Assembly (NCBI RefSeq): GCF_965208355.1 | Contig: NZ_CBDBOM010000003.1 | Location: forward strand, 1,217,394 to 1,281,393 | Reading direction: 5' to 3' | Source: Candidatus Poriferisocius sp. | GTDB taxonomy: Bacteria; Actinomycetota; Acidimicrobiia; Acidimicrobiales; Bin134 | Length of the DNA stretch: 64,000 bases | Shown here: positions 9,157-31,115 of the stretch, piece after piece | Layout of the letters: each line of letters starts with the position of its first letter | Numbering within the stretch: position 1 is the first letter of the stretch | Position numbers and translations under genes: made by a program | Notes under the pieces: model-generated | The model's input: the letters and a program-made list of their open reading frames with translations, nothing else | Told to the model about the DNA's origin: nothing | The model's database searches: none

Positions 9157-10152
9157 TCAGTCAGAGCCGGCTTCGATCGTTCCGGTGATTGAACCTGATC
9201 CGGTGCCAGGCAGGTTGCGGCCTGAGCAGGCTTCGAGGGCAGTAGTCAGAGCGGCTTTCTCGTCTTGGTCTACTGAGAGGGAGTAGGCGGCTTTGACAAG
9301 CACCATCCTCTGAGCCAGGAAGCACCGCCCGTCAACGGTGGTCTCTGTGCCTTCGCACACGCCGCTACCGATCCGTCCTGACCATTCGGCCATGTCACGC
9401 GCGCCCTTAGATCGGTTGACGCAATCGCGTGTCGCTATCAGGTTCTCGGCATCGTTCCCGAACGCCATGCGCCGTGCGGTGTCCCACGCCCAAGCTCCGG
9501 ACTCGAATGCCTCCTGGGCGGCCACGATGTGATCCACGTCACAGGTAGACGGATCGAACGAGATGCCCGTATAAGGGTCGGTGCCCGCGTTGTCGCACAG
9601 GTAGCGCCGATCGTGCTCAAATTCGGCGCGCACATAGCCTGACCCCTCGTACTCGGGTTCAACGGTCAACCCGTTGAGAACGCCGATAGCAGCTGATTCA
9701 GCCGGCGGGGCAATTGACGAGGTGCCTTCTGTTACCTCTGTTGACGGAGTGTCGTCTGTCTGTTGGGAGCACCCACCGGGCACGAGCTGGGTGTCGACGT
9801 CGAATTGGCATCGATAGACGTTCAACAGGGCCTCTTGGCTCTGGATGAGCGTGTCGCGCACGTCGATGTCTTGCTGGGTGGGGTTCGGGGGAGCAGGACC
9901 GGGGGAGACCTGATAGGGCCCCGGGCAGCCGCCAGGAACCACGTCGGTGTCCACTCCGAACAGGCACCGGTAGGTGTTCAGGAGGTTCTCCTGGTTGGCG
10001 ATCAGCTGGTCCCGAACCTCCACGTCGGCCACCGATTGGGCCGAGGCCGCGGGCGCAACGAGAGCCGAGGGCAGAAGGAGCATCGCAACCAGCGCTGCGA
10101 TGGCCGCCAATCTGCGAGTGAATCGAGAGCGGTACACATTGGGGGAAGCCAT
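9157..10152 (-). CDS. secreted protein: signal peptide, 2x Cys-pair module, C-terminal DUF1524/HNH-like nuclease domain
   Basis: Signal peptide ...LVAPAASAQS. Two copies of RDxLIxxQExLLNxYRCxFxVDxxxVPGGC. The C-terminus DVDHIVAAQEAFESGAW...NLIATRDCVNRSKGARDMAEW fits the His-Me finger pattern of DUF1524 (GmrSD C-terminal type). Confidence 0.7.
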   Translation of the reverse strand: MASPNVYRSRFTRRLAAIAALVAMLLLPSALVAPAASAQSVADVEVRDQLIANQENLLNTYRCLFGVDTDVVPGGCPGPYQVSPGPAPPNPTQQDIDVRDTLIQSQEALLNVYRCQFDVDTQLVPGGCSQQTDDTPSTEVTEGTSSIAPPAESAAIGVLNGLTVEPEYEGSGYVRAEFEHDRRYLCDNAGTDPYTGISFDPSTCDVDHIVAAQEAFESGAWAWDTARRMAFGNDAENLIATRDCVNRSKGARDMAEWSGRIGSGVCEGTETTVDGRCFLAQRMVLVKAAYSLSVDQDEKAALTTALEACSGRNLPGTGSGSITGTIEAGSD

Positions 10153-10243
10153 AGGCTTCCAATGATAATAAGCATGATGATTTAGAATTCACCCTGAATA
10201 ACGCATGGCGATTTGCGCTCGTCCGGTACACTGGACGCTGCTT

Positions 10244-10318
10244 TCGGGAGTGGTGTAATTGGCAACACACCGGGTTCTGGTCCCGATATTGGGGGTTCGA
10301 GTCCTCCCTCCCGAGCCA
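10244..10318 (+). tRNA. tRNA-Gln (anticodon CTG), CCA encoded
   Basis: The cloverleaf was folded by hand. Acceptor stem is TCGGGAG/CTCCCGA and D arm is GTGT-AATTGGCA-ACAC. Anticodon stem is CCGGG/CCCGA with loop TTCTGGT. T arm is GGGGG-TTCGAGT-CCTCC, with discriminator G and then CCA. Confidence 0.85.
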
Positions 10319-10345
10319 ACCGAGTGTGATTGAAGTCGTAGATCC

Positions 10346-11485
10346 TCAGATACTCCAGATTTGGAGCAGGTCGGGGGCGGTGAACCAGTGGCGGGTGCGT
10401 CCGGGGCTGGAGGATGGGACGTCGATGGGCGACAGGATGCCGCGGGAGGCGAGCGCAGATAGGGCGGTGCGGGCGCTGCGCTCGCTGGTGCCCAGTAGAT
10501 CGGCGACGTCGCCAGCACTCAACAGCGGCTGGGCGGGAAGATGGGGGAGTAGGGCTAGCGCCGAGTGGTCGGCTCGCAGATCGCTGACTGCCTCTTCCCA
10601 TTGAGTCAACAGCGCGCTGGTTTGATCGATGATCTGTTGGGCGGTGGCAGCGGCCCTTTCAGTGTTTTCGGCGAACCACGTGACCCACGGTTCGAGGTCC
10701 CCCTGCTCGAAGAGGCGAAGGCCGGATAAGTAGCCGCCGGGGTCGCGGGCGATGGCCATGCTGATGGGGGCGGTGGATCGGGAGGTCACTCCTTGTCGCC
10801 GCAGGGTTCGGCTGACCAACGCACGACCGAGGCGGCCGTTGCCATCGCCATAGGGGTGGATGGCCTCGAATTGGGCGTGGATCACCGCCGCGTGGGAGAC
10901 CGGGTCGATGTCTTCGGGGTCGGTGTTGGCGAAGGCGATCAGGTCGTCAACCAGCCGAGATATATCCGCGTGCGGCGGGGGAACGTAGGCCGCGTCGAGC
11001 GGCGAACTGCCTCCCACCCACCCCACTGCGGGGCGGAACACTCCGATCATGTCGGGGGGAAGACTCCCATGCTGCATGAGCTGTCGATGCCATCGGTGCA
11101 GCGCGTCGACGGTCAGCGGCTCGTGAGCGGTTTCCAAAGCCCAGTCGATCACGATGAGATTGCCAGCCACCCAGCCAGCGGTGCCGCCTGCGCCGGTTCG
11201 CTCCGCAATCAGGACCGACTCAATGGGCTCGCGCAGTCCCTCGATTCCCGAGGATGCCACCCCCTCATTGCGCAGAAGGAGCCTGGCCATGGCCTCCCAA
11301 CGGTCGGGCAGCCGGGCGTCGGCGAGCCGCAAAGCAGCACATGCCCGCTCGCAAGCCCGCGCCGCAGAGGCAGACAGCTCCGCGGGGCGCTCTCGAAGAA
11401 GGGCCGGGACCCACGCCTGGACCGGTCGGCCATTCCAGTCGACCTCAACCGAATATCCCGAATAGTCTTCCGAATCCGGCTCCAT
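10346..11485 (-). CDS. Fic family protein (AMPylase-type) with C-terminal winged-helix region
   Basis: 379 aa. Fic motif HPYGDGNGRLGR is intact. An N-terminal SSGIEG fits the (S/T)xxxE(G/N) inhibitory helix of class II Fic proteins. Confidence 0.85.
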   Translation of the reverse strand: MEPDSEDYSGYSVEVDWNGRPVQAWVPALLRERPAELSASAARACERACAALRLADARLPDRWEAMARLLLRNEGVASSGIEGLREPIESVLIAERTGAGGTAGWVAGNLIVIDWALETAHEPLTVDALHRWHRQLMQHGSLPPDMIGVFRPAVGWVGGSSPLDAAYVPPPHADISRLVDDLIAFANTDPEDIDPVSHAAVIHAQFEAIHPYGDGNGRLGRALVSRTLRRQGVTSRSTAPISMAIARDPGGYLSGLRLFEQGDLEPWVTWFAENTERAAATAQQIIDQTSALLTQWEEAVSDLRADHSALALLPHLPAQPLLSAGDVADLLGTSERSARTALSALASRGILSPIDVPSSSPGRTRHWFTAPDLLQIWSI

Positions 11486-11537
11486 TTCGGAAGACTACCA
11501 TCTAGTCTTCCGAATCCAGCTCCATTTCGGAAGACTA
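11463..11537. promoter_or_regulatory. two tandem copies (period 40 bp) of a 35-bp palindromic element spanning the fic start codon
   Basis: The sequence TAGTCTTCCGAA-N11-TTCGGAAGACTA occurs at 11463-11497 and again at 11503-11537, with one mismatch. It lies between the divergent fic and RCC1-like genes. Confidence 0.6.
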
Positions 11538-11636
11538 TTGACCTATTATTCTGAAACTAGTGGCGGCGCGGGAGTCAGATACCGAAGCGGACTCAGCGTG
11601 CCACAACTACCGCAGGCCTTTACACTCGGCGCTCAC

Positions 11637-13997
11637 ATGTTGGTCCTGGCAAGAATCCGTGTTCGAACCGGCCTCGCGCTCGCAGTGGTGCCAGCCGTGC
11701 TTGCGGTGTCGGTGTTGGTGGCAGAGTCTGGGGTGTTGGCTCAGTCGGCGGCCGATGTGGAGACGCGAGATCGATTGATCGCCGATCAGGAGAACCTTTT
11801 GAACACCTATCGGTGCCGGTTCAGTGTGGACGTGCAAGCGGTTCCGGGCGGTTGTCCAGAGCCAGATGTTGTGTCGCCAGGGGTAGCACCCCAGAGCCCG
11901 TCGCAGCATGACATCGACGTGCGTGACGGGCTGATCCAGAACCAAGAGGCGCTGTTGAATACCTATCGGTGTCGGTTCAACATCGACACCGAGGTGGTCC
12001 CTGGCGGCTGTGGCGAGTCGACAGTTGACCACGCTGCCTCTGGCATCGAGGCTAGATGGCTTCGTGATCCGACTTGCCGCAACGTCTATCGCTGGTGGAA
12101 CGGTGAGCAATGGACAGACAAGGTGGCGAACGACGGGATTGCGAGCACTGATCCTCTCCGAAACGACGACAATTTGTTGCCTCCCAGGACGACTAGCGAT
12201 GAGCGAGACTGCATCGGGCCGGACTGGCTGCCAGACCCCACCTGCAGAAACACGTATCGGTGGTGGGACGGCCAGCAGTGGACTGACAGGGTGTGGAACG
12301 ACGGGGCTAGGGGCACTGACCCGCTTCAAAGCGGAGAGAACCCGTCGCCGCCTGTCATGGGCGAGACACCTGACTGCACCGATGACCAGACCAGCGAATC
12401 CGAATCGATAACTCCCTCTACCGACCCTCTAGCCAAGGCACCAGCAGAAGTAGGCATCTCGGCCGGCGCTACCAATTCGTGCGCGTTACGGGCCAATGGG
12501 AAGGCGGTTTGCTGGGGTGGCAACGATGTCGGTCAGATAGATGCCCCTGAGGGTACTTTCATTGCCATTTCCACCAAATACAGACTCTCGTGTGGGCTGC
12601 GCGAAGACGGCACCGTGGAGTGTTGGGGCGACAATACCTACGGACAGCTGGAAGTTCCGACGGGCAGCTACAGCACAATCTCCGCAGGCTATAGCCACGC
12701 TTGCGGGCTGCGAATGGACGGATCAGCCATTTGCTGGGGCCGCAACAACCACGGTCAGCTGGACGCCCCCAAAGGAGCATTCATCGCATTGTCAGTTGGC
12801 AGTATCCACGCTTGCGGGCTGCGAATCGACGGATCAGCTATTTGCTGGGGCAGTAACAAATTTGGCAAGTTGGACGCCCCCAAAGGAGCATTCACTGCTG
12901 TATCTGCCGGATGGACGTATTCGTGTGGGCTGCGCGATGACGGCACCGCCGTATGCTGGGGGAGCAATAGCGATGGTCAGCTCGACGTGCCGGAAGGCCA
13001 TTACAACAGCCTCTCATCCGGCGGCAACCACGCTTGCGGATTGCGGGAAGACGGCACCGCCGTATGCTGGGGCCGCAACAGAGATGGCCAGGCCGACCCT
13101 CCCAAGGGAACATATGCCGGAGTTTCGGCTGGCACTGTTCATTCTTGCGCCAAAACCGCCGATGGCGGAATCACGTGCTGGGGCGGGAACGGATTCGGCC
13201 AAGCCGACACCCCCGGCGCCAAATACACGGCGGTTTACGCAGGTTCTCAACACTCATGTGGATTGAGAGACGACGGTGCTCTCATTTGCTTTGGATTCGA
13301 TTTTGCTGGCGAAACCAAGCCTCCCAGTGGCAGCTTCAAAGCCGTCTCGGCTGGCAGCCAGTACACCTGCGGTTTGCGTACCAATGGAACTGCCGTGTGT
13401 TGGGGTAGCGAAGTCTCAGGCCGAACCCGTGCTCGCGGTGGGACCTTTACGGCGATCTCTGCCGGAAGTGTCCACGTATGCGGATTGAGGGCCAGTGGGA
13501 CTGTGGTTTGCTGGGGTGGGAACAGATCCGGCCAAGCCGACGCGCCTGCGGGCCTTTATTCCGCGATTTCCGCTGGCGGGGCACACTCTTGTGCATTGAG
13601 GGCCAGTGGGACTGTGGTTTGCTGGGGCGAAAACAATTTTGGCCAGCTCGACGTGCCCGAAGGAGCCTATACGGCGATCGCTGCTGGCTCTTCTCATACA
13701 TGCGGGTTGAGGATGGATGGGACCATCACCTGCTGGGGCAAAGACGGGGACGATGCCATTGCCTCTGGATCACCTGAAGGTATATTCACCGACGTTTCGG
13801 CCAGATGGTCCCATGCATGCGGGTTGAGGACGGATGGGACCATCACCTGTTGGGGCGAAGACGGACATGGAGAGATTGTCACTAGAACACCTAGGGGAAC
13901 CTTTGCGGCGATCTCTGCCGGGGGTATGCACGTATGCGGGTTGAAGGCGGATGGGACCATCACCTGCTGGGGTATTCCGAGCTACCAGACAAGATAG
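11637..13997 (+). CDS. secreted RCC1-like beta-propeller repeat protein (14 blades) with N-terminal Cys-pair modules and two DUF2510-like WW motifs
   Basis: ATG 11637 gives the signal peptide MLVLARIRVRTGLALAVVPAVLAVSVLVAESGVLAQS. This is followed by 2x the RDxLI..YRC..VPGGC module and 2x WLxDPTCRNxYRWWxGxQWTD. Fourteen units of the SAGxxHxCGLRxDGTxxCWGxNxxGQxDxP type follow. The ORF-track TTG start at 11538 is rejected. Confidence 0.8.
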   Translation: MLVLARIRVRTGLALAVVPAVLAVSVLVAESGVLAQSAADVETRDRLIADQENLLNTYRCRFSVDVQAVPGGCPEPDVVSPGVAPQSPSQHDIDVRDGLIQNQEALLNTYRCRFNIDTEVVPGGCGESTVDHAASGIEARWLRDPTCRNVYRWWNGEQWTDKVANDGIASTDPLRNDDNLLPPRTTSDERDCIGPDWLPDPTCRNTYRWWDGQQWTDRVWNDGARGTDPLQSGENPSPPVMGETPDCTDDQTSESESITPSTDPLAKAPAEVGISAGATNSCALRANGKAVCWGGNDVGQIDAPEGTFIAISTKYRLSCGLREDGTVECWGDNTYGQLEVPTGSYSTISAGYSHACGLRMDGSAICWGRNNHGQLDAPKGAFIALSVGSIHACGLRIDGSAICWGSNKFGKLDAPKGAFTAVSAGWTYSCGLRDDGTAVCWGSNSDGQLDVPEGHYNSLSSGGNHACGLREDGTAVCWGRNRDGQADPPKGTYAGVSAGTVHSCAKTADGGITCWGGNGFGQADTPGAKYTAVYAGSQHSCGLRDDGALICFGFDFAGETKPPSGSFKAVSAGSQYTCGLRTNGTAVCWGSEVSGRTRARGGTFTAISAGSVHVCGLRASGTVVCWGGNRSGQADAPAGLYSAISAGGAHSCALRASGTVVCWGENNFGQLDVPEGAYTAIAAGSSHTCGLRMDGTITCWGKDGDDAIASGSPEGIFTDVSARWSHACGLRTDGTITCWGEDGHGEIVTRTPRGTFAAISAGGMHVCGLKADGTITCWGIPSYQTR

Positions 13998-14110
13998 ATG
14001 GCAAGAACGAATTCTCGGGATAGATGAACCCCAGTGGAATCAAGTCAATGGCCGGATGGGAAAAGAGCCATGCGGTGAGATTCTCATCTGTTCTGAAGGC
14101 TCAGTAACCT

Positions 14111-14482
14111 CTGCGCATCCTGATCTCGTTTGACATCGACGGCACGCTGGAGTGCGGTGATCCGCCGGGGCCGATACTGCTGGAAGCGATGCGGCAGGCC
14201 AAGGCCAGGGGCTTTGTGATCGGCAGCGGCTCCGATCGGGTGCGCTCCGACCAGCAGCGACTGTGGGATATCCACGGGATCGACGTGGACTTCGTGGGCG
14301 GCAAGCACCATTTGGACGAGGTGCGGAACCAGTTCGAGGCCAGCCGCTACATTCACATCGGCGACACCGACGTCGACCGGTACTACGCCGAGGCGGCTGG
14401 ATTTGAGTTCCTGCACGTGGAGGAACTGGAAGGCGTCTCCAACGCGCTGGCCGGATCAGATTTCTTCGACTGGCTGGGTTAG
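14111..14482 (+). CDS. small HAD-superfamily hydrolase (start codon unresolved)
   Basis: The frame reads LRILISFDIDGTLECGD... (HAD motif I DxDGT) and later HIGDTDVD (motif IV-like). The first ATG at 14189 is downstream of motif I. Only CTG 14111/14120 or ATC 14117 lie between the in-frame stop (14105-14107) and the motif. Confidence 0.55.
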   Translation: MRILISFDIDGTLECGDPPGPILLEAMRQAKARGFVIGSGSDRVRSDQQRLWDIHGIDVDFVGGKHHLDEVRNQFEASRYIHIGDTDVDRYYAEAAGFEFLHVEELEGVSNALAGSDFFDWLG

Positions 14483-15615
14483 CCCCGCAGTTTGCGCAAC
14501 TCAGCTAGCGCTTGTTCGAGAGCGCTGGCCGCGGCGTCCACGTCTGCATCCGTAGTCGACCACCCCACCGACAGGCGCAGCGAGTGGTGGGCATCCACCC
14601 CCATGGCTTCGAGCACCGGCGACGGCTCCAGCGACTCCGAGGCGCACGAGCTGCCGGAGTGGGCGGCCACCCCGGCCCGGTCCAATGCGATCAGCACGGC
14701 TTGGGGCTCCACGTCGTCGATGCCCAGGCACACCAGATGGGGGAGGCACTCGGTGGGGTGGCCATAGAGCTCGACACCCTCAATGCTCTGAGCCAGGTCG
14801 CGCAGCTTGTCGGTGTGGAATTGGGCTCGGCTGGCCTCCTGCTCCAAGCCGCCGTCCTCGAGCACAGCGCATGCCGCGGCAAAGCCGGCGATGGCCGCGC
14901 CGTTCTCCAGACCGGCCCGGCGAGCCCGTTCCTGGTCGCCGCCCTCCAAGAGAGGCACTAGGCGCAGGCCGCGGCGCACCAGCAAGGCACCGATGCCCGG
15001 CGGTCCCCCAAACTTGTGGGCGCTGATGGACATCAAATCGGCGCCGGTCTCGGCAAAATCGATCGGAACCTGGCCCGCGGCCGCGGCGGCATCTATATGG
15101 ATGAGCACTTCCGGCGATCGCTCACGGCAAGCCGCCACCATCTCGGCCACCGGCTGCGCCGTGCCCACCTCGTGGTTGGCCCACTGGCAGTGGACGGCGG
15201 CGGTGTCGGGCCCGATGGCCGCGGCCATCTCGGCGGGGTCCACCCTCCCGGTGCTGTCCACTCCCACCACAGTGGCCTGGTAGTCGTTCGCTTCCAGCCG
15301 CTCAACCGACAGCCGCACCGCCGAATGCTCTACCGCGCTGAGCACCTGATGGGTTCCCCGGTACGACGATCCCCGCACCGCGGCGGCGATCGACTCGGTA
15401 GCACCGCTAGTGAACACCACCTCCCGCGAGCGGGCGCCGAAGCAATCGGCCACCTGCTGGCGGGCCTGCTCGATCTCATAGCGGGCGGTGAGCGCCTCGG
15501 CGTGCATACGGGAGGGGTCGCCGTGGCCGGCGGCCCACCACTGGTTCATGGCCGACAGCGCCTCGGGTCGGAGGGGAGAGGTGGACGCGTGGTCGAGATA
15601 GTGGCGTCGGGTCAC
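14479..15615 (-). CDS. cysteine desulfurase (class V aminotransferase, NifS/IscS-like)
   Basis: 378 aa, GTG start. PLP-lysine region SISAHKFGGPPGIG and catalytic-Cys region HSGSSCAS are present. Confidence 0.88.
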   Translation of the reverse strand: MTRRHYLDHASTSPLRPEALSAMNQWWAAGHGDPSRMHAEALTARYEIEQARQQVADCFGARSREVVFTSGATESIAAAVRGSSYRGTHQVLSAVEHSAVRLSVERLEANDYQATVVGVDSTGRVDPAEMAAAIGPDTAAVHCQWANHEVGTAQPVAEMVAACRERSPEVLIHIDAAAAAGQVPIDFAETGADLMSISAHKFGGPPGIGALLVRRGLRLVPLLEGGDQERARRAGLENGAAIAGFAAACAVLEDGGLEQEASRAQFHTDKLRDLAQSIEGVELYGHPTECLPHLVCLGIDDVEPQAVLIALDRAGVAAHSGSSCASESLEPSPVLEAMGVDAHHSLRLSVGWSTTDADVDAAASALEQALAELRKLRG

Positions 15616-15688
15616 GGCACTTGAGGGGTCATAGCGCGGGGTTGGTCACGGCACAGGGATTTCTGAGTCGATGCCGTAATCTACCGGC

Positions 15689-16531
15689 ATGGCTCCCGCA
15701 GGCGACACCCCCGCCCCGCCGCGCCGGACCATTCCCTTCACCGAGCCGACGTCAACCACCCGGGTGTTGCTGATCGCCTCGGGCAAGGGCGGTGTGGGCA
15801 AGTCGTCGGTCACGGTCAATCTGGGGGTGGCATTGGCCGCCGCCGGGCATCGCACCGCGGTGGTGGATGCCGACGTTTGGGGCTTCTCGGTGCCCCGGAT
15901 GCTGGGCATCAACCAAGAACCGCAAATGGTGGGCGAGATGATCGTGCCCCCCGAGGCACACGGCGTGCGGTGCATCTCCATGGGTTTCTTCGCCGAGGAA
16001 GATCAGGCGGTGATCTGGCGGGGGCCCATGCTCCACAAAGCACTGGAGCAGTTCCTCACCGACGTGGCCTGGGACGACCCCGACTATCTCCTGGTGGACC
16101 TGCCGCCGGGCACCGGCGACATCTCCATCTCGTTGGCCCAGTTCCTGCCCCGCTCCGAGGTCTATGTGGTTACCACCCCCCAGCCCGCCGCCCAGCGAGT
16201 GGCTCAGCGGGCCGCGTTCATGGCCGAGAAGGTGAACCTCACCGTGCGAGGGGTGATCGAGAACATGAGCTGGTTCACCGGAGACGACGGCAAGCGGTAC
16301 GAGCTGTTCGGCGCCGGGGGAGGCCAAGAACTGGCCGACCGGCTCGAAGTGCCGCTGATCGGGCGGGTGCCGCTGATTCCCGCCCTACGGGAGGGTGCCG
16401 ACAGCGGCCGGCCGATTGCCGCCGAGGCCCCGGACTCCGAAGCCGGCCAGGCCTTTGCCGCCATGGCCGCCCATCTGGTGGACAACCCGCCGCCCCGGCG
16501 CATCTACAGCCCAGAGCTGAAGATCAACTAG
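15689..16531 (+). CDS. Mrp/ApbC-type Fe-S cluster carrier ATPase
   Basis: 280 aa with the deviant Walker A ASGKGGVGKSS and a MinD/Mrp-family body. It lacks the N-terminal DUF59 extension seen in many actinobacterial Mrp proteins. Confidence 0.85.
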   Translation: MAPAGDTPAPPRRTIPFTEPTSTTRVLLIASGKGGVGKSSVTVNLGVALAAAGHRTAVVDADVWGFSVPRMLGINQEPQMVGEMIVPPEAHGVRCISMGFFAEEDQAVIWRGPMLHKALEQFLTDVAWDDPDYLLVDLPPGTGDISISLAQFLPRSEVYVVTTPQPAAQRVAQRAAFMAEKVNLTVRGVIENMSWFTGDDGKRYELFGAGGGQELADRLEVPLIGRVPLIPALREGADSGRPIAAEAPDSEAGQAFAAMAAHLVDNPPPRRIYSPELKIN

Positions 16532-16554
16532 GTCAAATTCAAGGAGAGCAGTCA

Positions 16555-16785
16555 ATGCATGTTCGAATCGGCGTCATCCGCAGCCAAAAGGAGATCGAGG
16601 TGGAATTGGACCCCGACTCCGAGATGGAGACGGTGAAGAAAGCCATCACCGCGGGCCTGGCGTCGGGCGAGATGCTGTGGCTCACCGACCACCGGGGCCG
16701 CGAGGTGGGCGTCCCGGCCGCCAGCGTGGCTTACGTGGAACTCGACCCTTCAGCCTCCGGTCGATCCATCGGCTTCGGGAGCTAG
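16555..16785 (+). CDS. DUF3107-family small protein
   Basis: 76 aa, MHVRIGVIRSQKEIEVELDP...LWLTDHRGREVGVPAASVAYVEL, preceded by AAGGAG. It matches my recollection of the conserved actinobacterial DUF3107 protein. Confidence 0.7.
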   Translation: MHVRIGVIRSQKEIEVELDPDSEMETVKKAITAGLASGEMLWLTDHRGREVGVPAASVAYVELDPSASGRSIGFGS

Positions 16786-16811
16786 TCGATTCCCAGCCAT
16801 AAACTTGGCTG

Positions 16812-18317
16812 ATGGCGAGCCTGGAGGAATTGGCCCCCGGTCTAGCCAAGTCGCGCCTGAACCACCTCCAGCGGCTCATGCGGACGTGGGCGCCGCTGGC
16901 TGACATCTCCTTTGCCGATTTGCTGTTGTATGTGCCCGCCAGCCAGTCCACCGCCAGCCCGGCGAGCTCCAGTCCGGCGAGCTACGCCATAGCAGGGCAG
17001 ATCCGGCCCACCACAGCCCGCTCCATCCATCGCAACAACTTGGTGGGAGCGGTGTTCACCCCCGAGCAGCGTCCGCTGGTGGACGTGGCCTATCGGGAGG
17101 GGCGGATAACCGACGGCGGGCGGATCGCCCACACCGACCAGCCCCGCATCCGCACGCTGACTGTGCCGGTGAACTGCCACGGCGAGGTGGTGGCGGTGAT
17201 GGCCCGGGAGTTCGATCCCGACACCCAGCGAAACCCCGGTGAGCTGGAGATGAGCTACTTCAAGCTGTTTAGGCGGCTGGCGACCATGATCGCCGAGGGG
17301 GAGTACCCGTTCCCGGTGGACGACATCGAGACCGAGGAGTCTCCCCGGGTGGGCGACGGGCTGATGCTGCTCGATGCCTCAGGCCGGGTTCAGCTCATTT
17401 CGCCCAACGCCGCCTCGGCGCTGCATCGCATTGGCCTCCACAGCGATGTGGAGGGCCGCCGGCTGGTGGACATCGGCCTGGAGCAGCGGGCCATCCGGGC
17501 CGCGTTCGCCTCGCGCCTGCCCCAGACAGAGGAGATTCAGCACGGAGATCGGGGCACTGTGGTGCTGCGCTGTTTGCCGCTGATCGGGCGGGGAGAGGTC
17601 ACCGGCGCATTGGTGCTGATGCGCGACATCTCTGAGCTGCGCCGCCGGGACCGGCTGTTGATGTCCAAAGACGCCACCATCGCCGAGATCCACCACCGGG
17701 TGAAGAACAACCTCCAGACGGTGTCGTCGCTATTGCGCCTGCAGGGGCGCCGGGCCGTCGCCGCCGAGGCCCGCGATGCCATCGAGGAGTCGGTGAGGCG
17801 CATCCGGGCGATCGCCATCGTCCATGAGATTCTGTCGCGCGACGCCAGCAGCGACGTTCCGTTTGTGGAGATCGTGCGGTCGCTGGTGCGCATGGTGGAG
17901 GAGGGGCTGACCGGCCCGGACCGGCCGGTTGAGTTCAAGGTGAGCGGCGATGCCGGAGAGCTGGCGGCCGACGTGGCCACGCCGCTGGCGGTGGTGCTGA
18001 ACGAGTGCTTGCAGAACGTGATGGACCACGCCTACCCCGAGCCCCCTGGCGGGCAGGTGCGCATCGAGTTGGACAACGACGGCGATCAGGTGAAGGTGCG
18101 GGTGACTGACGACGGTGTCGGGCTGCCGCCCGGCTTCGACGTGGACAGCGCCGATGGATTGGGTATCGCCATCGTGAGAAATCTGGTGAGCGCCGACCTA
18201 CGGGGCAGCATCACTATGAGCAACGGCGAGGGGGATCAGCCGCGTCGCGGCACTGTTGTAGAAGTGGCCATTCCCCTGTTAGGGGTCGCTCCCCGCCAGA
18301 GCGCTAAGCCAAGATGA
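16812..18317 (+). CDS. pdtaS: PdtaS-like soluble sensor histidine kinase (GAF/PAS + HisKA_2 + HATPase)
   Basis: 501 aa. H-box EIHHRVKNNLQTVSSLLRLQ and ATPase region NECLQNVMDHAY...DDGVGLP are present. It is convergent with a whiB gene, as in the Mycobacterium pdtaS-whiB1 arrangement. Confidence 0.8.
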   Translation: MASLEELAPGLAKSRLNHLQRLMRTWAPLADISFADLLLYVPASQSTASPASSSPASYAIAGQIRPTTARSIHRNNLVGAVFTPEQRPLVDVAYREGRITDGGRIAHTDQPRIRTLTVPVNCHGEVVAVMAREFDPDTQRNPGELEMSYFKLFRRLATMIAEGEYPFPVDDIETEESPRVGDGLMLLDASGRVQLISPNAASALHRIGLHSDVEGRRLVDIGLEQRAIRAAFASRLPQTEEIQHGDRGTVVLRCLPLIGRGEVTGALVLMRDISELRRRDRLLMSKDATIAEIHHRVKNNLQTVSSLLRLQGRRAVAAEARDAIEESVRRIRAIAIVHEILSRDASSDVPFVEIVRSLVRMVEEGLTGPDRPVEFKVSGDAGELAADVATPLAVVLNECLQNVMDHAYPEPPGGQVRIELDNDGDQVKVRVTDDGVGLPPGFDVDSADGLGIAIVRNLVSADLRGSITMSNGEGDQPRRGTVVEVAIPLLGVAPRQSAKPR

Positions 18318-23188: not shown

Positions 23189-23682
23189 CAGTTGGAGCAG
23201 GGGCACCAAGTGCCGTCGTCGTTGAGCGGAGCGCCGCAGTACCGGCATGGGGGACGGCCCGCGGCCACCACCTGTCGGGCCCGGGCGACAAAGCCGGCCA
23301 CCTGGCTTTGAGTGATCCGGAACCGAGCGGTGGCCAGATCGTCGTCTTCTTCTTCCTGGGTGGGCATCTCCGTTGCCATTATGAGCATTCGGTCGGCGTC
23401 GGCGTCGTAGCCGATCCCTATGTTGCCCACCGTCCACTCGGATTCCAGAGGCTCTATCAGGCCGATGTCGGCCTCCGGCACGATGGCATCTGGGTCGTCG
23501 CTGATCTCCCTGAGGGCCCCATCCAGATACTCCGCCAGCGCGGCCACCTGCTGTTTTTCCAGCTTGAGCGACACCAGCGTGCCGGTGATGCCCGCTTGGA
23601 GATAGAACACCCGTTGGCCGGGAGGCCCGATGGTGCCCACCGTGAAATGCTCAAGATCGTTCAGGTCGAAAGAAGCGCTCAT
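23188..23682 (-). CDS. DUF3090-family protein
   Basis: 164 aa, MSASFDLNDLEHFTVGTIGPPGQRVFYLQA..., with a C-terminal CRYCGAPLNDDGTWCPC zinc-ribbon-like end. It sits between the phosphomutase-like and SCO1664-like genes, as recalled for this actinobacterial trio. Confidence 0.7.
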   Translation of the reverse strand: MSASFDLNDLEHFTVGTIGPPGQRVFYLQAGITGTLVSLKLEKQQVAALAEYLDGALREISDDPDAIVPEADIGLIEPLESEWTVGNIGIGYDADADRMLIMATEMPTQEEEDDDLATARFRITQSQVAGFVARARQVVAAGRPPCRYCGAPLNDDGTWCPCSN

Positions 23683-23726
23683 GACGGCTCAAGGTCGTTC
23701 AGGTCGAAAGAAGCGCTCATGACGGC
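23649..23726. repeat. 38-bp tandem duplication (2 copies, 1 mismatch) covering the phosphomutase stop / DUF3090 start junction
   Basis: The 40-nt string gctcaag[a/g]tcgttcaggtcgaaagaagcgctcatgacggc occurs at 23649-23688 and again at 23687-23726. Confidence 0.95.
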
Positions 23727-24361
23727 ACGAGGGCCTTCAACTCAGATGTGCTGTTGACGGCCAGCACCAGCGGGCCATCGTCGCTGTAGAGGATGGCGGT
23801 GATCGAGCAGGGCGAGACAACGATCCGCTGGAACATGTCCAGGTGGGCGCCCGAGGCGTGGGAGACCGCCGCCTTGATGGTGTCGGCATGCGACACCGCC
23901 ACCACCGTTGTGCCGGGGTGGCGGGCCACCAGGGATTGCACGGCGCCGTTCATCCGGGTCTGCATCTCGGCGAACGACTCTCCCCCCGGGAAGCGGAAAC
24001 TGCTGGGGCTGCGCTGCACCTGGCGCCAGTCGCGGCGGCGGCGCAGGTCGCTGAGTCGCCGACCGGTCCACCGGCCGAAGTCGCACTCGTTGAGGCTGTC
24101 GAGCACCCGAACTCGCCGTCCCACCGCCCGGGCAATAGGCGCGGCGGTCTCCCGGGCCCGCTCCATGGGCGAGGCGTACACCGCCGCGATTCGTTTGGGG
24201 CCCAGGGCGGCGATGCGGGCCGCAGCTTGTTCCGCCTGTTCTCGGCCCCGGTCGCTGAGGTGCAGGCCGGGCGCCCGTCCGGGCAGCACCGCGCCGGTAG
24301 TGGGGGTTTGGCCATGGCGCACGAACAACACCAAGGTGGGTTTGCGGGATTTAGCGGCCAT
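23717..24361 (-). CDS. histidine phosphatase family protein (MSMEG_4193-type putative phosphomutase)
   Basis: 214 aa with the RHGQT catalytic motif (LFVRHGQTPTT) and a distal SHADTIKA His region. Confidence 0.8.
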   Translation of the reverse strand: MAAKSRKPTLVLFVRHGQTPTTGAVLPGRAPGLHLSDRGREQAEQAAARIAALGPKRIAAVYASPMERARETAAPIARAVGRRVRVLDSLNECDFGRWTGRRLSDLRRRRDWRQVQRSPSSFRFPGGESFAEMQTRMNGAVQSLVARHPGTTVVAVSHADTIKAAVSHASGAHLDMFQRIVVSPCSITAILYSDDGPLVLAVNSTSELKALVPS

Positions 24362-24418
24362 TTGCTCTATGGAATCTGCCTCTGGGTGTCGCTGCCTCTG
24401 AACAATTCTTGACAGCCA

Positions 24419-25117
24419 TTGTCTTCTATCTTGGCGGTAGTGGGCTCAACAGACACATTTGACGAACTTTCCGCCGATGTTATCGCCTGTCGCGCCTGCC
24501 CCCGGCTGGTGGCTTGGCGCGAGGAGGTGGCTGCGGTGAAGCGGGCCGCCTATCGGGACTGGACCTATTGGGGCCGGCCGGTGCCGGGATTCGGCGACCC
24601 CGACGCTCGTATCGTGGTGGTGGGTCTGGCGCCGGCGGCCCACGGCGCCAACCGCACCGGGCGAATGTTCACCGGCGACCGGTCGGGGGACTTCTTGTAT
24701 GCCTCGCTGCATCGGATGGGGCTGGCCAACCAGCCCGACGCCACCGACCGTGACGACGGGCTGGTGCTGAGCGACGTGTACATCACCGCCCCGGTACGCT
24801 GCGCGCCGCCCCAGAACAAGCCCACCCCCGCTGAGCGGGACGCTTGTCGCCCCTTCCTGGTGAGGGAGCTGGAGCTGTTGAGTCGGGCCCGGGTGTTTGT
24901 GGCCTTGGGGGCCATCGGCTACGGGGCGGTGGCCGCAGAGTTGGGGATGCGGCCCCGGCCCAAGTTTGCCCACGGCTTGGAGGCGCCCGCTCCCGGTGGG
25001 CCAACAGTGGTGTGTTCGTATCACGTGAGCCAGCAGAACACCTTTACCGGCCGGCTCACCGAGGACATGCTCGACGGGGTGTTCGCCCGGGCCATTGCGC
25101 TGGCCGACACGGTGTAG
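24419..25117 (+). CDS. uracil-DNA glycosylase, family 5 (UdgB-like)
   Basis: Contains the CRACPRLV Fe-S region and motif A GLAPAAHGANRTGRMFTGD. Ala replaces the catalytic polar residue, as in family 5. TTG start; the exact start is uncertain. Confidence 0.78.
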   Translation: MSSILAVVGSTDTFDELSADVIACRACPRLVAWREEVAAVKRAAYRDWTYWGRPVPGFGDPDARIVVVGLAPAAHGANRTGRMFTGDRSGDFLYASLHRMGLANQPDATDRDDGLVLSDVYITAPVRCAPPQNKPTPAERDACRPFLVRELELLSRARVFVALGAIGYGAVAAELGMRPRPKFAHGLEAPAPGGPTVVCSYHVSQQNTFTGRLTEDMLDGVFARAIALADTV

Positions 25118-25125
25118 CCCCGGGA

Positions 25126-25569
25126 ATGGTTCGCGACTTCGACGGATCGGGCGATACCGTTGGGCCCGTGACGAAGACCCGTTTGCTGGCGATTGTGGCT
25201 GCGCTGATTCTGGTAGCAGCCGCCTGCGGCAGCTCCGGCGCGCCCACTTCTTGGGACGACAATGCCGAGGACTATTGCCCGAGCGGAGGTGAACCCTGTG
25301 AGTCCGATGTTGAGCCCAACGTGGGCCAGCCCGAGCGGAACTTCCGCGATGGATGCAGGGAAGCCGGCAAAGACGACCTGGACCAGCAGGTTCAAGCGAA
25401 TTTGGACGATGTGTGCAAGTGCGGCTTCGACCGGATCAGGGACAGCTTGACCTTCGAGCAGTTCAAAGAGCTTGACGACGATCTGCGCAGCAACATCAAT
25501 GCCGACTTGACCGAAGAGGTGAGCCAGATCATGCGCCAGTGCATCTTGGAGGAATCGGGGCTGGGCTAG
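25126..25569 (+). CDS. Cys-rich lipoprotein, function unknown
   Basis: TKTRLLAIVAALILVAAACGSSG carries an LVAAAC lipobox, and seven further Cys follow. The start is either ATG 25126 or GTG 25168. Confidence 0.6.
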   Translation: MVRDFDGSGDTVGPVTKTRLLAIVAALILVAAACGSSGAPTSWDDNAEDYCPSGGEPCESDVEPNVGQPERNFRDGCREAGKDDLDQQVQANLDDVCKCGFDRIRDSLTFEQFKELDDDLRSNINADLTEEVSQIMRQCILEESGLG

Positions 25570-25611
25570 CAGCCCGCTGAGGGCAGATGCCCCCTCAGAC
25601 TCCTACCCGGC

Positions 25612-26802
25612 TCAGACCCCTACTCGGACCGCGCTCTCGGCCCACTCGGGCCAGCGCTGGCGGCTCTTGGCGGCCAGCTTGTGCATCAGGGCCACCGCGC
25701 CCGGGTCGTCGTCGCCGGGGCGGGCCTGGATCACCCCGTCGTCCAGCATGGCATTGATAACGGCTCGCCCCAGTTCGGTGCGGACCACGGTGAGGGTCCA
25801 GTCGGAGAGATCTCCGATGCCCCCGGTTGAGATGTCGGCGTGCTCGGCAGCGAAATCAGGGCAGAGGTTGCAGCCCTCCCGGGTCCAGGCGTGGCACTCC
25901 TTGAGGTTGATCTCGTGGTAGTCGCCGTTCTTCATCCACACCTGGAACACGCCCTTGATGTTCATCTTGGCGATCTGGTCGGTGGGCAAGCCGTACTTGA
26001 CCCAGAACAGCTCCTCGAACATGGAGTCGTCGAAGCTCTTTGAGCACAGCAGCCCGATGTTCAACTTGATGGGACGGCCCACCTTGCCCACCTTGCGGTT
26101 CCACATCACCGGTCCGATGGAGGTCTGACAGCTCATGCCCACCAGGGCCAGGTTCTCCAGCCCTCGCTCCTTGGCCTCCCGGTAGGCCAGGGGGTTGGCC
26201 GAATACGTGTAGCGGCTGCCCGCGCCCCGCAGCACCTCTTCCCGGTTGACGGCCAGGCCCGGCACTGCCTTCCAGCCGTCGGTGTCGCCGCCCTCCAAAA
26301 ATGAGGTGAGGGCGCCGTCGATGACGTCGTTCTCCAGGCACCAGATCAAGATGGCCGACACCAGCCCGCCGTCTTGGCCCACCTCGTACACGTAGTCGTC
26401 GCTGGCTCGCACCAGCAGGATGTCGCTGTAGATGCCGGAGACCTCTTCCTCGGTGCGGATGCGCCCAAACAGGTGCTCGTCGGCCTCGGCCTCCCAGGTG
26501 CGGAACCGGGGACAGGCCCGAGTGCAGGAAGTACACCCCTTCTGGCCGTGGATGCAGTCAGACAGGCCCAGCTCCTCCTCCAGGTGGAAGGGCTTGTACT
26601 GGCCAGGCTCGTGCTTGTAGCCGATCACATCATGAGGGCAGGCGATCACGCAGCCCGCGCACCCCGTGCACAGCCCGGTGTCGATGACCTCCTCGTAGAG
26701 TTCCTTCCACTGGTGCTTCCAGCGAACCTTGGCCTCAGCCACCCTGAAACTTTGCCACGCCCAGCATGTGATTTGGTCATTCAAAACGCATTTGCCCAGC
26801 AA
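25612..26802 (-). CDS. coenzyme F420 hydrogenase/dehydrogenase beta-subunit family protein (FrhB/FdhB-like)
   Basis: Contains the ferredoxin motif CTGCAGCVIACP and a second Cys cluster CIHGQKGCTSCTRACP, followed by an FrhB_FdhB-like body. An in-frame GTG at 26742 is a plausible true start. Confidence 0.72.
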   Translation of the reverse strand: MLGKCVLNDQITCWAWQSFRVAEAKVRWKHQWKELYEEVIDTGLCTGCAGCVIACPHDVIGYKHEPGQYKPFHLEEELGLSDCIHGQKGCTSCTRACPRFRTWEAEADEHLFGRIRTEEEVSGIYSDILLVRASDDYVYEVGQDGGLVSAILIWCLENDVIDGALTSFLEGGDTDGWKAVPGLAVNREEVLRGAGSRYTYSANPLAYREAKERGLENLALVGMSCQTSIGPVMWNRKVGKVGRPIKLNIGLLCSKSFDDSMFEELFWVKYGLPTDQIAKMNIKGVFQVWMKNGDYHEINLKECHAWTREGCNLCPDFAAEHADISTGGIGDLSDWTLTVVRTELGRAVINAMLDDGVIQARPGDDDPGAVALMHKLAAKSRQRWPEWAESAVRVGV

Positions 26803-28959: not shown

Positions 28960-28971
28960 ACCAAGCTAACT

Positions 28972-28986
28972 CTGGCGCCCACGGCA
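28972..28986. repeat. 15-nt direct repeat of the tRNA-Arg 3-prime end (att-like)
   Basis: The string ctggcgcccacggca is identical to 35698-35712. It begins 13 nt after the flotillin stop codon. Confidence 0.8.
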
Positions 28987-29093
28987 CCGGGCAGCCCTCC
29001 GCAGCCGCCCGGTTCAGTGAAGGGAATCCAATGCACTCAGCCGGGTCGCTGGAACTTTGTTGGCTGTCTGAATAGCCCTTAGCCTGCCGACCT

Positions 29094-31115
29094 ATGCCCG
29101 CCCCATACAGCCTGTTCAATCAGCGTCTTCCAATGGGCGTGGTTGCTGTGCTCGCAGTCGTGGTGGGCTTGTTGGTGTCGCATCTCGGCGTTGTTGGGGC
29201 TAGCGCGCAACCTGAACCCGAGTCCCAGCCCACTCCCCAAGATATTCAACACCGCGACCAGCTAATCGCCAACCAGGAGAACCTGCTGAACACTTACCGG
29301 TGCATGTTCGGGGTTGATGTCGACGCGGTCCCGGGGCAGTGCCCGAACCCCATGGTCGTCTCCCCCGGAGCCACGCCAGTAAGCCCCACCCAACAAGACC
29401 TGGCGGTGCGCGACCGGCTCATCGCCGATCAAGAAGATCTGCTCAACGTCTACCGCTGCCGTTTCGACGTCGACACCCAACTCGTACCCGGCGGCTGCAC
29501 TGACCAACCCGACCCCCAACCAACCGGCCAACCAGCAGCCGGATTTATCGCCATCTCAGCTGGCGGCGACCATTCGTGCGGAATCAGAATCGACCAAACC
29601 GCCGTCTGCTGGGGCCACAACGGTCTCGGGCAGGCGGACGCGCCCGCAGGCGCGTTCACTGCCATCTCCGCCGGCGGCGGCCATTCGTGCGGGATCAGGG
29701 CCGACCAAACCGCCGTCTGCTGGGGCCACAACAGTCACGGGCAGGCGGACGCGCCCGCAGGCGCGTTCACCGCCATCTCCGCCGGCAGCGGCCATTCGTG
29801 TGGGATCAGGGCCGACCGCACCGCCGTCTGCTGGGGCAATGGCAACTCCGGGCAGGCGGACGCGCCCGCAGGCGCGTTCACTGCCATCTCAGCTGGCGGC
29901 GGCCATTCGTGCGGGATCAGGGCCGACCGCACCGCCGTCTGCTGGGGCCACAACGGTCACGGGCAGGCGGACGCGCCCGCAGGCGCGTTCACCGCCATCA
30001 CAGCTGGCGGCGGCCATTCGTGCGGAATCAGAACCGACAGCGCCGCAGAATGCTGGGGCCACAACGATGACCTTGACTATGGGCAGGCGGACGCGCCCGC
30101 AGGCGCGTTCACCGCCATCTCCGCCGGTAGCGTCCACTCGTGCGGGATCAGAGCCGACAACACCGCAGAATGCTGGGGCTCCAACGCTCTCTGGCAGGCG
30201 GACGCGCCCGCAGGCGCGTTCACCGCCATCTCCGCCGCCACCGGCCATTCGTGTGGGATCAGAGCCGACCGCACCGCCGTCTGCTGGGGCCACAACGGCT
30301 TCGGGGAGGCCGATGCGCCCGCAGGCGCGTTCACTGCCATCTCCGCCGGCGGCGTCCATTCGTGCGGAATCAGAACCGACAACACCGCAGAATGCTGGGG
30401 GGACCGTTACAAACTCGATCGCTCCGAGGTAGACGCGCCCGCAGGCGCGTTCACCGCCATCTCCGCCGGCGGCAAACATGCCTGCGGGATCCGGGTCGAC
30501 AACACCGCAGAATGCTGGAGCTACAACTTTCACGGGCAGGCGGACGCGCCCGCAGGCGCGTTCACCGCCATCTCCGCCGGCGGCCATTCGTGCGGGATCA
30601 GAGCCGACAACACCGCAGAATGCTGGGGCTCCAACGCTGTCGGGCAGGCGGACGCGCCCGCAGGCGCGTTCACCGCCATCTCCGCCGCCACCGGCCATTC
30701 GTGTGGGATCAGAGCCGACAACACCGCCGTCTGCTGGGGCCACAACTTTCACGGGCAGGCGGACGCGCCCGCAGGCGCGTTCACTGCCATCTCCGCCGGC
30801 GGCAACCATGCCTGCGGGATCAGGGCCGACCGCACCGCCGTCTGCTGGGGCCACAACAGTCACGGGCAGGCGGACGCGCCCGCAGGCGCGTTCACCGCCA
30901 TCTCCGCCGGCGGCGGCCATTCGTGCGGGATCAGGGCCGACCGCACCGCCGTCTGCTGGGGCAATGGCAACTCCGGGCAGGCGGACGCGCCCGCAGGCGC
31001 GTTCACTGCCATCTCAGCTGGCGGCGGCCATTCGTGTGGGATCAGGGCCGACCGCACCGCCGTCTGCTGGAACTGGACGACGAACCTTCCGGCAGGCGTT
31101 TCCTGGGTGTTTTGA
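29094..31115 (+). CDS. secreted RCC1-like beta-propeller repeat protein (14 near-identical blades) with N-terminal Cys-pair modules
   Basis: Signal peptide MGVVAVLAVVVGLLVSHLGVVGASAQP. This is followed by 2x the RDxLI..YRC..VPGxC module and a Pro/Gln linker. Fourteen units GQADAPAGAFTAISAGGGHSCGIRADRTAVCWGHNxH follow. Confidence 0.82.
   Translation: MPAPYSLFNQRLPMGVVAVLAVVVGLLVSHLGVVGASAQPEPESQPTPQDIQHRDQLIANQENLLNTYRCMFGVDVDAVPGQCPNPMVVSPGATPVSPTQQDLAVRDRLIADQEDLLNVYRCRFDVDTQLVPGGCTDQPDPQPTGQPAAGFIAISAGGDHSCGIRIDQTAVCWGHNGLGQADAPAGAFTAISAGGGHSCGIRADQTAVCWGHNSHGQADAPAGAFTAISAGSGHSCGIRADRTAVCWGNGNSGQADAPAGAFTAISAGGGHSCGIRADRTAVCWGHNGHGQADAPAGAFTAITAGGGHSCGIRTDSAAECWGHNDDLDYGQADAPAGAFTAISAGSVHSCGIRADNTAECWGSNALWQADAPAGAFTAISAATGHSCGIRADRTAVCWGHNGFGEADAPAGAFTAISAGGVHSCGIRTDNTAECWGDRYKLDRSEVDAPAGAFTAISAGGKHACGIRVDNTAECWSYNFHGQADAPAGAFTAISAGGHSCGIRADNTAECWGSNAVGQADAPAGAFTAISAATGHSCGIRADNTAVCWGHNFHGQADAPAGAFTAISAGGNHACGIRADRTAVCWGHNSHGQADAPAGAFTAISAGGGHSCGIRADRTAVCWGNGNSGQADAPAGAFTAISAGGGHSCGIRADRTAVCWNWTTNLPAGVSWVF
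29530..31075 (+). repeat. in-frame tandem array of ~111-bp units (108-123 bp) inside the RCC1-like gene
   Basis: The motif caggcggacgcgcccgcaggcgcgttcac recurs at 29631, 29742, 29853, 29964, 30084 and onward. Blades 1-3 are nearly identical to blades 11-13, and blades 5-6 to blades 9-10. Confidence 0.9.

Follow-up and report, generated by a model that had tools for sequence, protein, structure and literature searches.

The stretch of DNA analysed here, which we call the window, comprises 64,000 nucleotides from Candidatus Poriferisocius sp. (NCBI RefSeq assembly GCF_965208355.1, contig NZ_CBDBOM010000003.1, positions 1,217,394 to 1,281,393 of the forward strand). Three of its genes, A, B, and C, encode proteins with a common layout, in which a hydrophobic signal-like segment ending in (A/L)(S/A)AQ is followed by a 92-residue tandem of two similar units. 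A preliminary description of this DNA had noticed the duplicated module in three secreted proteins, and a regular-expression scan of all six frames with RD.LI..QE.LLN.YRC.F.[VI]D...VPG.C bears it out, giving exactly six copies in the window, two in each of the open reading frames (ORFs) A, B, and C, and none outside of them. This common element is an extracytoplasmic domain, previously undescribed and confined to a single lineage.

In the alignments of the three proteins, a 12-residue Pro-rich connector joins repeat 1 of the tandem to repeat 2, the copy starts are 52 residues apart, and the connector, PxPxxVSPGxxPxxP(T/S), is itself conserved. The tandem directly follows the signal in A and B, while an 8-residue spacer precedes it in C. 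The tandem boundaries (Table 1) agree with those of the preliminary description within about 10–30 nucleotides. The identity of about 70% that it had estimated by eye is found by computation to be 70% for A and B, 72% for A and C, and 64% for B and C, and the two Cys that it had placed about 13 residues apart are exactly 13 positions apart in every copy (columns 24 and 37). Single copies score 70–90 bits each against the six-copy profile, which is far beyond chance. It was also correct that the C-terminal parts differ, with a nuclease in A, DUF2510 and RCC1_2 in B, and RCC1_2 in C. The ORF of gene B is open already from a TTG at 11538, upstream of the ATG used in Table 1.

A special conservation of the module at the DNA level had been claimed as well, and this claim fails. 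The nucleotide identity of the tandems, 62–72%, only mirrors the protein conservation; the third codon positions are 33–57% identical, and the codon is the same at only 41–65% of the conserved residues. Since the third positions are this different, the similarity is explained by selection on the proteins of old paralogues, and gene conversion or recent duplication was rejected as its source. The tandems of A, B, and C are old paralogues under purifying selection.

Table 1. Genes A, B, and C and their parts, in positions of the window (aa, amino acids; pLDDT, predicted local distance difference test).
Feature	Position	Strand	Basis or detail
Gene A, exported nuclease, 331 aa	9157..10152	-	ORF and translation
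A signal peptide, aa 1-39, end AASAQ	10036..10152	-	Hydrophobic h-region, then A-x-A-Q
A tandem module, aa 40-131	9760..10035	-	Repeat 1, 9916-10035; repeat 2, 9760-9879
A flexible linker, aa 132-148	9709..9759	-	Block-mean pLDDT 47-56, several segments <50, full-length model
A His-Me finger nuclease (GmrSD_C/DUF1524-type), aa ~150-315	9208..9705	-	PF07510, pLDDT, and Foldseek
Gene B, exported DUF2510 and RCC1-repeat protein, 786 aa from ATG 11637	11637..13997	+	ORF
B signal peptide, aa 1-36, end VLAQ	11637..11744	+	
B tandem module, aa 37-128	11745..12020	+	Repeat 1, 11745-11864; repeat 2, 11901-12020
B two DUF2510 units	12057..12287	+	PF10708 E 7.8e-11, two stretches
B DUF2510 core motifs	12066-12119, 12234-12287	+	Motif positions
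B RCC1_2 region, 14 repeats	12414..13994	+	PF13540 E 2.3e-107; WD40_RLD E 1.4e-54
Gene C, exported RCC1-repeat protein, 673 aa	29094..31115	+	ORF
C signal peptide, aa 1-38, then 8-residue spacer	29094..29207	+	
C tandem module, aa 47-138	29232..29507	+	Repeat 1, 29232-29351; repeat 2, 29388-29507
C RCC1_2 region, 14 repeats	29532..31088	+	PF13540 E 3.7e-85

The module family and its predicted fold

How widely does the module occur? HMMER, run exhaustively against 1.84 billion representative proteins, gave 407 clusters at E ≤ 1e-3, and 381 of these have E ≤ 1e-10. The family is tight, and distant relatives do not trail off from it. When one genome per GTDB species was scanned, 293 loci were confirmed, of which the best 80, found in 27 assemblies, were inspected; these are the 80 loci referred to below. 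The titles of the 27 assemblies give Acidimicrobiia, Acidimicrobiales, 'Candidatus Poriferisocius', 'Sva0996', or no more than 'bacterium', and all database matches that carry a taxon name are Acidimicrobiia. The assemblies belong to the series SB06xx, jk18x, p16x, CAR, and OZ24xxxx of metagenome-assembled genomes (MAGs), which we take to be from sponge-microbiome projects, and one ENA record is labelled ENGE20-1_SAMN12347677. The records OZ242341.1 and OZ220703.1 have at least seven of the top 80 loci each, and a second module gene lies within 4 kb at 11 of the 80.

The unit is 40 residues long, with the consensus RDxLIxxQExLLNxYRCxFxVDxxxVPGGC, and the domain is two units in tandem. AlphaFold2, run on the tandem of A alone with a 20-sequence alignment of tandems, returned a confident model (mean pLDDT, 93.3; predicted TM-score (pTM), 0.82), in which each unit is predicted to form one amphipathic helix of about 25 residues and then a 12-residue loop. 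The predicted helices are at tandem residues 2–26 and 54–77, with a loop after each, and the connector has pLDDT values of 85–90. The loop is probably closed back onto the end of the helix by a disulfide between Cys-24 and Cys-37.

Exactly two full copies are found in 223 of the 288 profile-matching proteins and ORFs, and a few have three or four. The spacing of the copy starts is quantized, being either 52 residues (n = 121) or 56 residues (n = 132), and these spacings correspond to two connector types, PxPDxVxPGxAPxNPT and xxGxPxxxxxxPxxFxGTPT. The identity of the two repeats within a protein is 0.630, compared with 0.593 for permuted pairs, and none of 2000 permutations reached the observed value. 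The usual copy number of two, the quantized spacing, the confident model of the tandem, and the likeness of the repeats within a protein indicate that the tandem is the functional unit.

In an alignment of 207 tandem proteins, conservation reaches about 100% at 13 columns in the two repeats alike (R8, L11, Q15, E16, L18, L19, N20, Y22, R23, C24, D29, V33, and C37), and D9 is also listed among the conserved columns. The lowest entropy, 0.06–0.07 bits, is seen in a polar stripe at heptad positions d and e, made up of R8-D9, Q15-E16, and Y22-R23. The hydrophobic a and g positions have 0.65 and 0.81 bits, and the b, c, and f positions have 1.6–2.2 bits. A polar stripe as the most conserved part of the helix is what would be expected if it were a conserved binding surface.

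The preliminary description did not recognize the module as a named domain, and our searches lead to the same result. No model of the 2025 Pfam-A or of NCBIfam 20.0 matches the module of A, B, or C, even at E ≤ 1, and a Pfam scan of 80 + 107 family members gave no shared family except for the cargo domains. An hmmsearch of 177,635 PDB sequences with a 57-copy profile gave no match at E ≤ 10. Foldseek found no similar fold in the PDB (best E, 1.9; TM-score ≤ 0.32), and the best match in BFVD, a set of viral predicted structures, had E = 3.6 and a TM-score normalized to the query of ≤ 0.43. Literature searches found neither a description of the module nor any paper that joins Acidimicrobiia, sponge, and RCC1, and mentions of 'Poriferisocius' occurred in two coral papers only. 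The module domain is not discussed in the paper on the enrichment of eukaryotic-like proteins (PMC11706023).

Position, cargo, and anchors of the module proteins

The tandem is always at a terminus of the protein in the family members that we examined. A hydrophobic h-region lies 1–16 residues upstream of the module in 220 of 230 N-terminal cases, and the consensus before the module is A-S-A-Q. This ending, A-x-A-Q, is of the signal peptidase I type and contains no Cys, so that the lipobox [LVI][ASTVI][GAS]C is absent from the module proteins. In L063, the sole case that appears to be internal, the true start of the protein and a signal peptide lie immediately before the module. The preliminary description had called the module a conserved N-terminal address. 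This is true of most members, but the position is not strictly N-terminal, as eight proteins have the tandem at the extreme C-terminus, at most about 7 residues from the stop in five of them and at most 32 in all eight. These include two cadherin/PKD/He_PIG giants, one RCC1 protein, and one pentapeptide-repeat protein. Other anchors are nearly absent: among 160 module proteins, a transmembrane (TM)-like segment in the cargo was seen in one and an LPxTG near the C-terminus in one, so the family does not consist of sortase substrates. The proteins do not resemble type VII substrates either, with the Sec-type signal in 220 of 230 and no WxG or LxG among the conserved columns.

The cargo is highly varied. 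By single-linkage clustering, 190 cargo regions fall into at least 41 unrelated clusters, and thus the variable cargo that had been proposed is indeed carried by a shuffled autonomous unit. Of the 80 genomic members, 38 have RCC1_2, the cargo of genes B and C, as do 25 of the 107 representatives. Pfam matches in other cargo are CAP, PD40/DPPIV_N, GmrSD_C, Calx-beta, cadherin, PKD/He_PIG, LRR, ankyrin, fn3, pentapeptide, Trypsin_2 with PPC, Peptidase_M60, Polyketide_cyc2, Gmad2, LytR_C, Cyt-b5, and SLH; some cargo has weak matches to NIP_1, and many regions have no Pfam match. Most of the cargo consists of binding repeats or solute-binding proteins, with some enzymes (nuclease, proteases, and CAP). 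Cadherin, LRR, fn3, Calx-beta, and WD40-like propellers are 'eukaryotic-like' domains that are reported to be enriched in sponge-symbiotic Actinobacteriota (PMC11706023).

Two families of the solute-binding proteins of ATP-binding cassette (ABC) transporters, SBP_bac_5 and OpuAC, are among the cargo. The module-bearing OpuAC and SBP_bac_5 genes are found side by side, directly upstream of a PhdYeFM antitoxin/PIN toxin pair (L083, 4572–8419; L081, 3–3037; L084, 7001–8293). In three proteins, P0264, P0267, and P0272, an OpuAC domain is fused to RCC1_2 repeats, which hints at a possible cell-surface role for the abundant RCC1 cargo as well.

The cargo of gene A matches PF07510 with E = 3e-6 and 27.6 bits (cut-off, 23) over aa 182–303. 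In the nuclease core, D207 is invariant among 60 homologues, and D205, H208, N233, and N246-R247-S248-K249 are nearly so. The match above the gathering score, the DH...N...NRSK core, and the beta-beta-alpha-Me fold identify this cargo as a GmrSD_C/DUF1524 His-Me nuclease. Foldseek ranks Vvn and Vibrio endonuclease I highest (probability, 0.92–1.00; E, 7e-3 to 8e-2), which are secreted or periplasmic nucleases, followed by Cas9 HNH domains. The orthologue of gene A, P0315, has a cargo that is 92% identical and is named 'HNH endonuclease' at NCBI. In the model of full-length A, the module has pLDDT values of 74–81 and the nuclease 88–98 (aa ~150–310), whereas those of the linker at aa 131–148 are low. 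Because this linker separates them, the module and the nuclease are predicted to be independent domains.

Monoderm bacteria must keep ABC solute-binding proteins tethered to the cell. How are homologues of the cargo held when they lack the module? We searched for homologues of two cargo families, OpuAC and the gene A nuclease, and compared their N-termini. For OpuAC, 42 homologues had a readable N-terminus, of which nine have a plain signal peptide and the tandem, 25 have a lipobox (e.g. ...VVAGC|GNDDDD), or 27 if P0246 and P0253, which the regular expression missed, are counted, and six have an N-terminal TM anchor. For the nuclease, 23 were readable, with the module in five, a lipobox in 13, a TM anchor in one, and other signal-like N-termini in four. 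The nearest relatives of the gene A nuclease (76–92% identical) have the tandem, and the next tier (50–74%) does not; Pro/Thr-rich spacers follow the anchors in these module-less relatives. Thus, the module occupies the position of the membrane anchor of nearly every module-less homologue with a readable N-terminus. Both means can be used by one organism, as OZ246892.1 contains module genes together with TM-anchored and lipobox OpuAC paralogues (P0231 and P0239), and the window itself encodes a lipobox protein at 24844–25569.

Some nuclease homologues from the same lineage and from Gordonia (P0330, P0342, P0377, P0381, and P0383) have an Excalibur calcium-binding domain (PF05901). It replaces or adds to the lipid anchor, and is a further example of accessory extracellular modules that are swapped on the gene A nuclease.

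Proposed function and alternatives

What is the function of the module? We suggest that it is a terminal, non-covalent tether or docking domain of the cell surface, a proposal to which we give roughly an even chance. It is based on the tandem as functional unit, its terminal position and independence of the cargo, the shuffled cargo, the replacement of anchors in two cargo families, the solute-binding cargo, the lack of a second anchor, and the conserved polar stripe. The analysis shows the domain, its predicted fold, its terminal position, diverse cargo, and restriction to one lineage, and the replacement of anchors; the disulfides, the binding, and what the ligand is and where it lies are inferred. 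In the proposed mechanism, the protein would be exported by Sec, and the signal peptide would be cut at A-x-A just before the Gln, placing the module at the mature N-terminus; in a minority of proteins the module would be at the very C-terminus. The module would fold alone and bind non-covalently to a common component of the envelope, which may be a wall polymer or a surface receptor, and the cargo would hang from it by a flexible linker. It would then do the job of the lipid or TM anchor of related proteins. For the window, this would mean that the DNase of gene A and the RCC1 beta-propeller proteins of genes B and C stay at the cell surface.

Several known systems have this kind of architecture. 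The type I dockerin (PF00404) is also a terminal module of about 70–90 aa that arises from internal tandem duplication of a helix-containing segment, is joined by flexible Pro/Thr-rich linkers to diverse cargo, has many paralogues per genome, and works after Sec export. Like it, the new module is duplicated and terminal on many diverse secreted proteins, with up to seven of the top 80 loci on one chromosome. However, it has no match to PF00404, no Foldseek match, and no DxDxDG calcium-binding F-hand loops. It appears instead to be stapled by one Cys pair per repeat, and it is mostly N-terminal, whereas dockerins are C-terminal. It also differs in that no cohesin-like partner is known for it, and in that its carriers are Acidimicrobiia symbionts and its cargo is non-cellulolytic.

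The wall-binding repeats SLH (PF00395), LysM, CWB2, LGFP, and the choline-binding repeats are likewise terminal tandem units that keep unrelated proteins non-covalently at the envelope and are exchanged for other anchor types among homologues. None of their profiles matches the module, however, and its predicted fold, with two long helices and disulfide-closed loops, is different. Tethering by a lipobox or signal anchor in monoderms is similar in that it acts at the N-terminus of the mature protein, is followed by a Pro/Thr/acidic spacer, and is found in homologues of the same cargo, and the proposed function, keeping the protein at the cell, is equivalent. The module proteins differ from these in having the signal A-x-A-Q with no lipobox Cys, and in that the tether would be a folded domain and not a lipid or membrane helix. 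Thus, the module acts most like a dockerin or an SLH/LysM-type repeat in its architecture, but it is separate from those families in its profile, loops, and predicted fold. We would class it as a new domain family, with a proposed function of a familiar kind.

There are also observations that weigh against a tether. Three of the five AlphaFold models of the tandem are weaker, with pLDDT values of 66–73. An all-against-all comparison of ORFs within 4 kb on either side of the 80 loci revealed no conserved neighbour gene; no genuine neighbour family occurs at more than 10 of the 80 loci, and the top clusters turned out to be RCC1 repeats read in alternative frames. Where SLH occurs, in one or two proteins (L072 and one other), it is an additional domain apart from the module, and this looks redundant if both are wall anchors. 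Proteins also exist that consist of the module only (L059, which is P0016, and the double tandem P0069). Neither a permease nor an ATPase gene of an ABC transporter was seen within 7–8 kb of the module-bearing solute-binding genes in three contexts, the contig of the fourth context being only 1.8 kb and too short to judge. These orphan genes neighbour the PhdYeFM/PIN pair and metabolic genes, and the transport role of their products, hence their need for tethering, is assumed. Furthermore, the replacement of anchors can be read in reverse, with the module form as the released or host-directed version of cell-bound proteins. Finally, all of the carrier organisms are uncultured.

The unusual proteins just mentioned are of three forms. 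The product of L059 (3860–4342) has a signal peptide, the tandem, and an 18-aa tail; P0069 has two tandems with a Thr/Glu-rich spacer between them and no cargo; and L072 (3896–7102) encodes the tandem, a long acidic (DDDVG)n repeat, and an SLH domain. A simple model of an anchor plus cargo does not explain these proteins.

A bolder form of the proposal sees the tandem as the dockerin-like plug of a docking system of its own, found in the sponge-symbiotic Acidimicrobiia alone and not homologous to known ones, by which a modular and rapidly re-assortable 'symbiosis surfaceome' would be built on a common receptor or polymer. We consider this unlikely. If it were true, dozens of interchangeable eukaryotic-like adhesins, propellers, nutrient-binding proteins, proteases, and a nuclease would snap onto one receptor or polymer, and the composition of the surface would differ between close relatives.

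Could the ligand be on the host rather than on the bacterium? The tandem might bind a matrix component, glycan, or receptor of the sponge and so deliver or concentrate released symbiont proteins (eukaryotic-like repeat proteins, nuclease, proteases, and CAP) on the host, an alternative that we find doubtful. All 80 loci are in Acidimicrobiia MAGs from what we take to be sponge or coral-reef series. Cadherin, LRR, Ank, fn3, Calx-beta, and propeller repeats abound in the cargo, classes reported to be enriched in sponge-symbiotic Actinobacteriota (PMC11706023), and Peptidase_M60 of the mucin-degrading type and CAP would be plausible host-facing cargo. The replacement of anchors could then mean that proteins are released instead of anchored. 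However, cargo such as OpuAC, SBP_bac_5, and LytR_C makes little sense away from the cell. Furthermore, 13 columns that are nearly invariant in 207 proteins, across the symbionts of many hosts, favour a bacterial ligand, with an ancient conserved ligand of sponges as the other possibility.

A quite improbable function is oligomerization, in which the two-helix units of different polypeptides would bundle into homo- or hetero-oligomers to give multivalent cargo or a protein surface layer, with a few members anchored to the wall, e.g. by SLH. The amphipathic, heptad-patterned helices, with five of seven heptad positions constrained, are consistent with this, and so are the module-only and double-tandem proteins, the occurrence of the module with SLH in L072, and a near-identical module in dozens of paralogues per genome. 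However, the confident AlphaFold fold is monomeric, with the two repeats predicted to satisfy each other (pTM, 0.82), and there is no obvious need for oligomers of solute-binding proteins or nucleases. Oligomerization is in any case compatible with the tether model and does not exclude it.

It is very unlikely that the module is a pro-domain, that is, a leader that is removed after it has aided folding, disulfide formation, or export by Sec. The module does follow the signal peptidase site directly in most members and contains Cys, and much of the cargo, including the RCC1_2 blades and the nuclease, is also Cys-rich. However, the eight tandems at the C-terminus cannot serve as export leaders, the highly diverse cargo can in many cases fold in homologues that have no such leader, and the variable linkers show no conserved cleavage motif after the module.

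The preliminary description had compared this architecture with polymorphic effectors or surface display. Surface display fits the replacement of anchors, but the comparison with effectors is not supported. A polymorphic toxin system would combine a trafficking domain with interchangeable toxins and immunity genes, and the module proteins do share with the LXG, MafB, and Rhs types a conserved terminal domain, swapped C-termini, and a gene content that varies between strains, with module genes gained and lost individually between close relatives. Harmful candidates are also present among the cargo (the His-Me nuclease, trypsin-like protease, M60, CAP, and the weak NIP_1 matches). In contrast to those systems, however, the module follows an ordinary Sec-type signal with no dedicated secretion system, no small downstream or immunity-like gene or recurrent neighbour is found at the 80 loci, the gene adjoining gene A is gltX, which is convergent, and the cargo appears to be mostly binding repeats or solute-binding proteins rather than toxins. 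We therefore regard a toxin system as highly improbable. Finally, the trivial explanation, that the module is the shared N-terminus of one recently duplicated family or the result of gene conversion, with no real variation of cargo, draws on the RCC1 repeats common to B and C and on the frequency of RCC1_2 in the genomic members, and is refuted by the largely randomized synonymous sites, the diversity of the cargo, the C-terminal tandems, and the occurrence of the same cargo families with other N-termini.

What would a surface tether of this kind mean? In marine sponges, the uncultured Acidimicrobiia belong to the dominant symbionts, and the module bears on how their 'eukaryotic-like' proteins reach the host interface and stay there. 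The module is a simple sequence tag for multiple exported proteins in each of 27 genomes, up to seven among the 80 loci, which are very probably held at the surface, and thus provides a candidate surfaceome that can be tested; the tagged proteins include cadherin, LRR, ankyrin, Calx-beta, and RCC1 types. If the tether function is correct, this would be a new kind of non-covalent anchor in Actinomycetota, which replaces lipoprotein anchoring. The module of about 90 aa could also serve as a label probe for uncultured cells in tissue and makes a new entry for the domain databases.

Genomic context and minor observations

The module genes are accessory, and related genomes differ by the gain and loss of single ones. 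L001 (VYEX01000068.1), the closest relative found, aligns contiguously with window positions 5839–10320 at 90.8% identity and with 14105–17851 at 95.9%, and gene A is syntenic with it, but the 3.8 kb between, 10321–14104, which contain a Fic gene and gene B, are absent. This indel starts exactly at the 3' end of tRNA-Gln(CTG), 10244–10318, and neither an integrase nor a flanking direct repeat was seen at the 10321–14104 segment. The Fic/DOC-family gene is on the minus strand at 10346–11485 (Pfam E, 2.6e-15). In L070 (JAPOSH010000028.1), a module gene at 3884–4882 is located between homologues of window 23040–25562 and 25616–26760, where the window has only about 50 bp (25562–25616). Comparison with L043 and L024 suggests that the window is flanked closely on either side by more module genes.

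Some module ORFs in other genomes stop early. The loci L010 and L011 (OZ242355.1, 3800614–3808946 and, reversed, 15488–23820) have identical search statistics, are on opposite strands, and lie about 27 kb apart across the start of the circular record, which looks like an inverted duplication. The module ORF ends inside repeat 1 in both, which suggests a frameshift or pseudogene. In L029, the module ORF ends inside the first RCC1 blade.

The RCC1 region of gene C is a DNA array at 29549–31070, with a period of 111 bp, 13.6 copies, and 83% matches (Tandem Repeats Finder), and a super-period of 342 bp. Because of the array, other frames and the opposite strand contain long spurious ORFs (e.g. 29889–30920, minus; 30140–31294, plus), and the number of blades in gene C probably varies readily through recombination. 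Immediately after gene C, at 31231–32583, comes a gene for a DUF222 and HNH endonuclease protein (Pfam E, 1e-24 and 3.6e-12); such genes are common and repeated in actinobacterial genomes. A near-perfect tandem duplication of 38 bp is located at 23649–23726 (2.1 copies; 97% matches). It spans the gap between two minus-strand ORFs, overlapping the start of the one at 23188–23682 and the stop of the one at 23717–24361.

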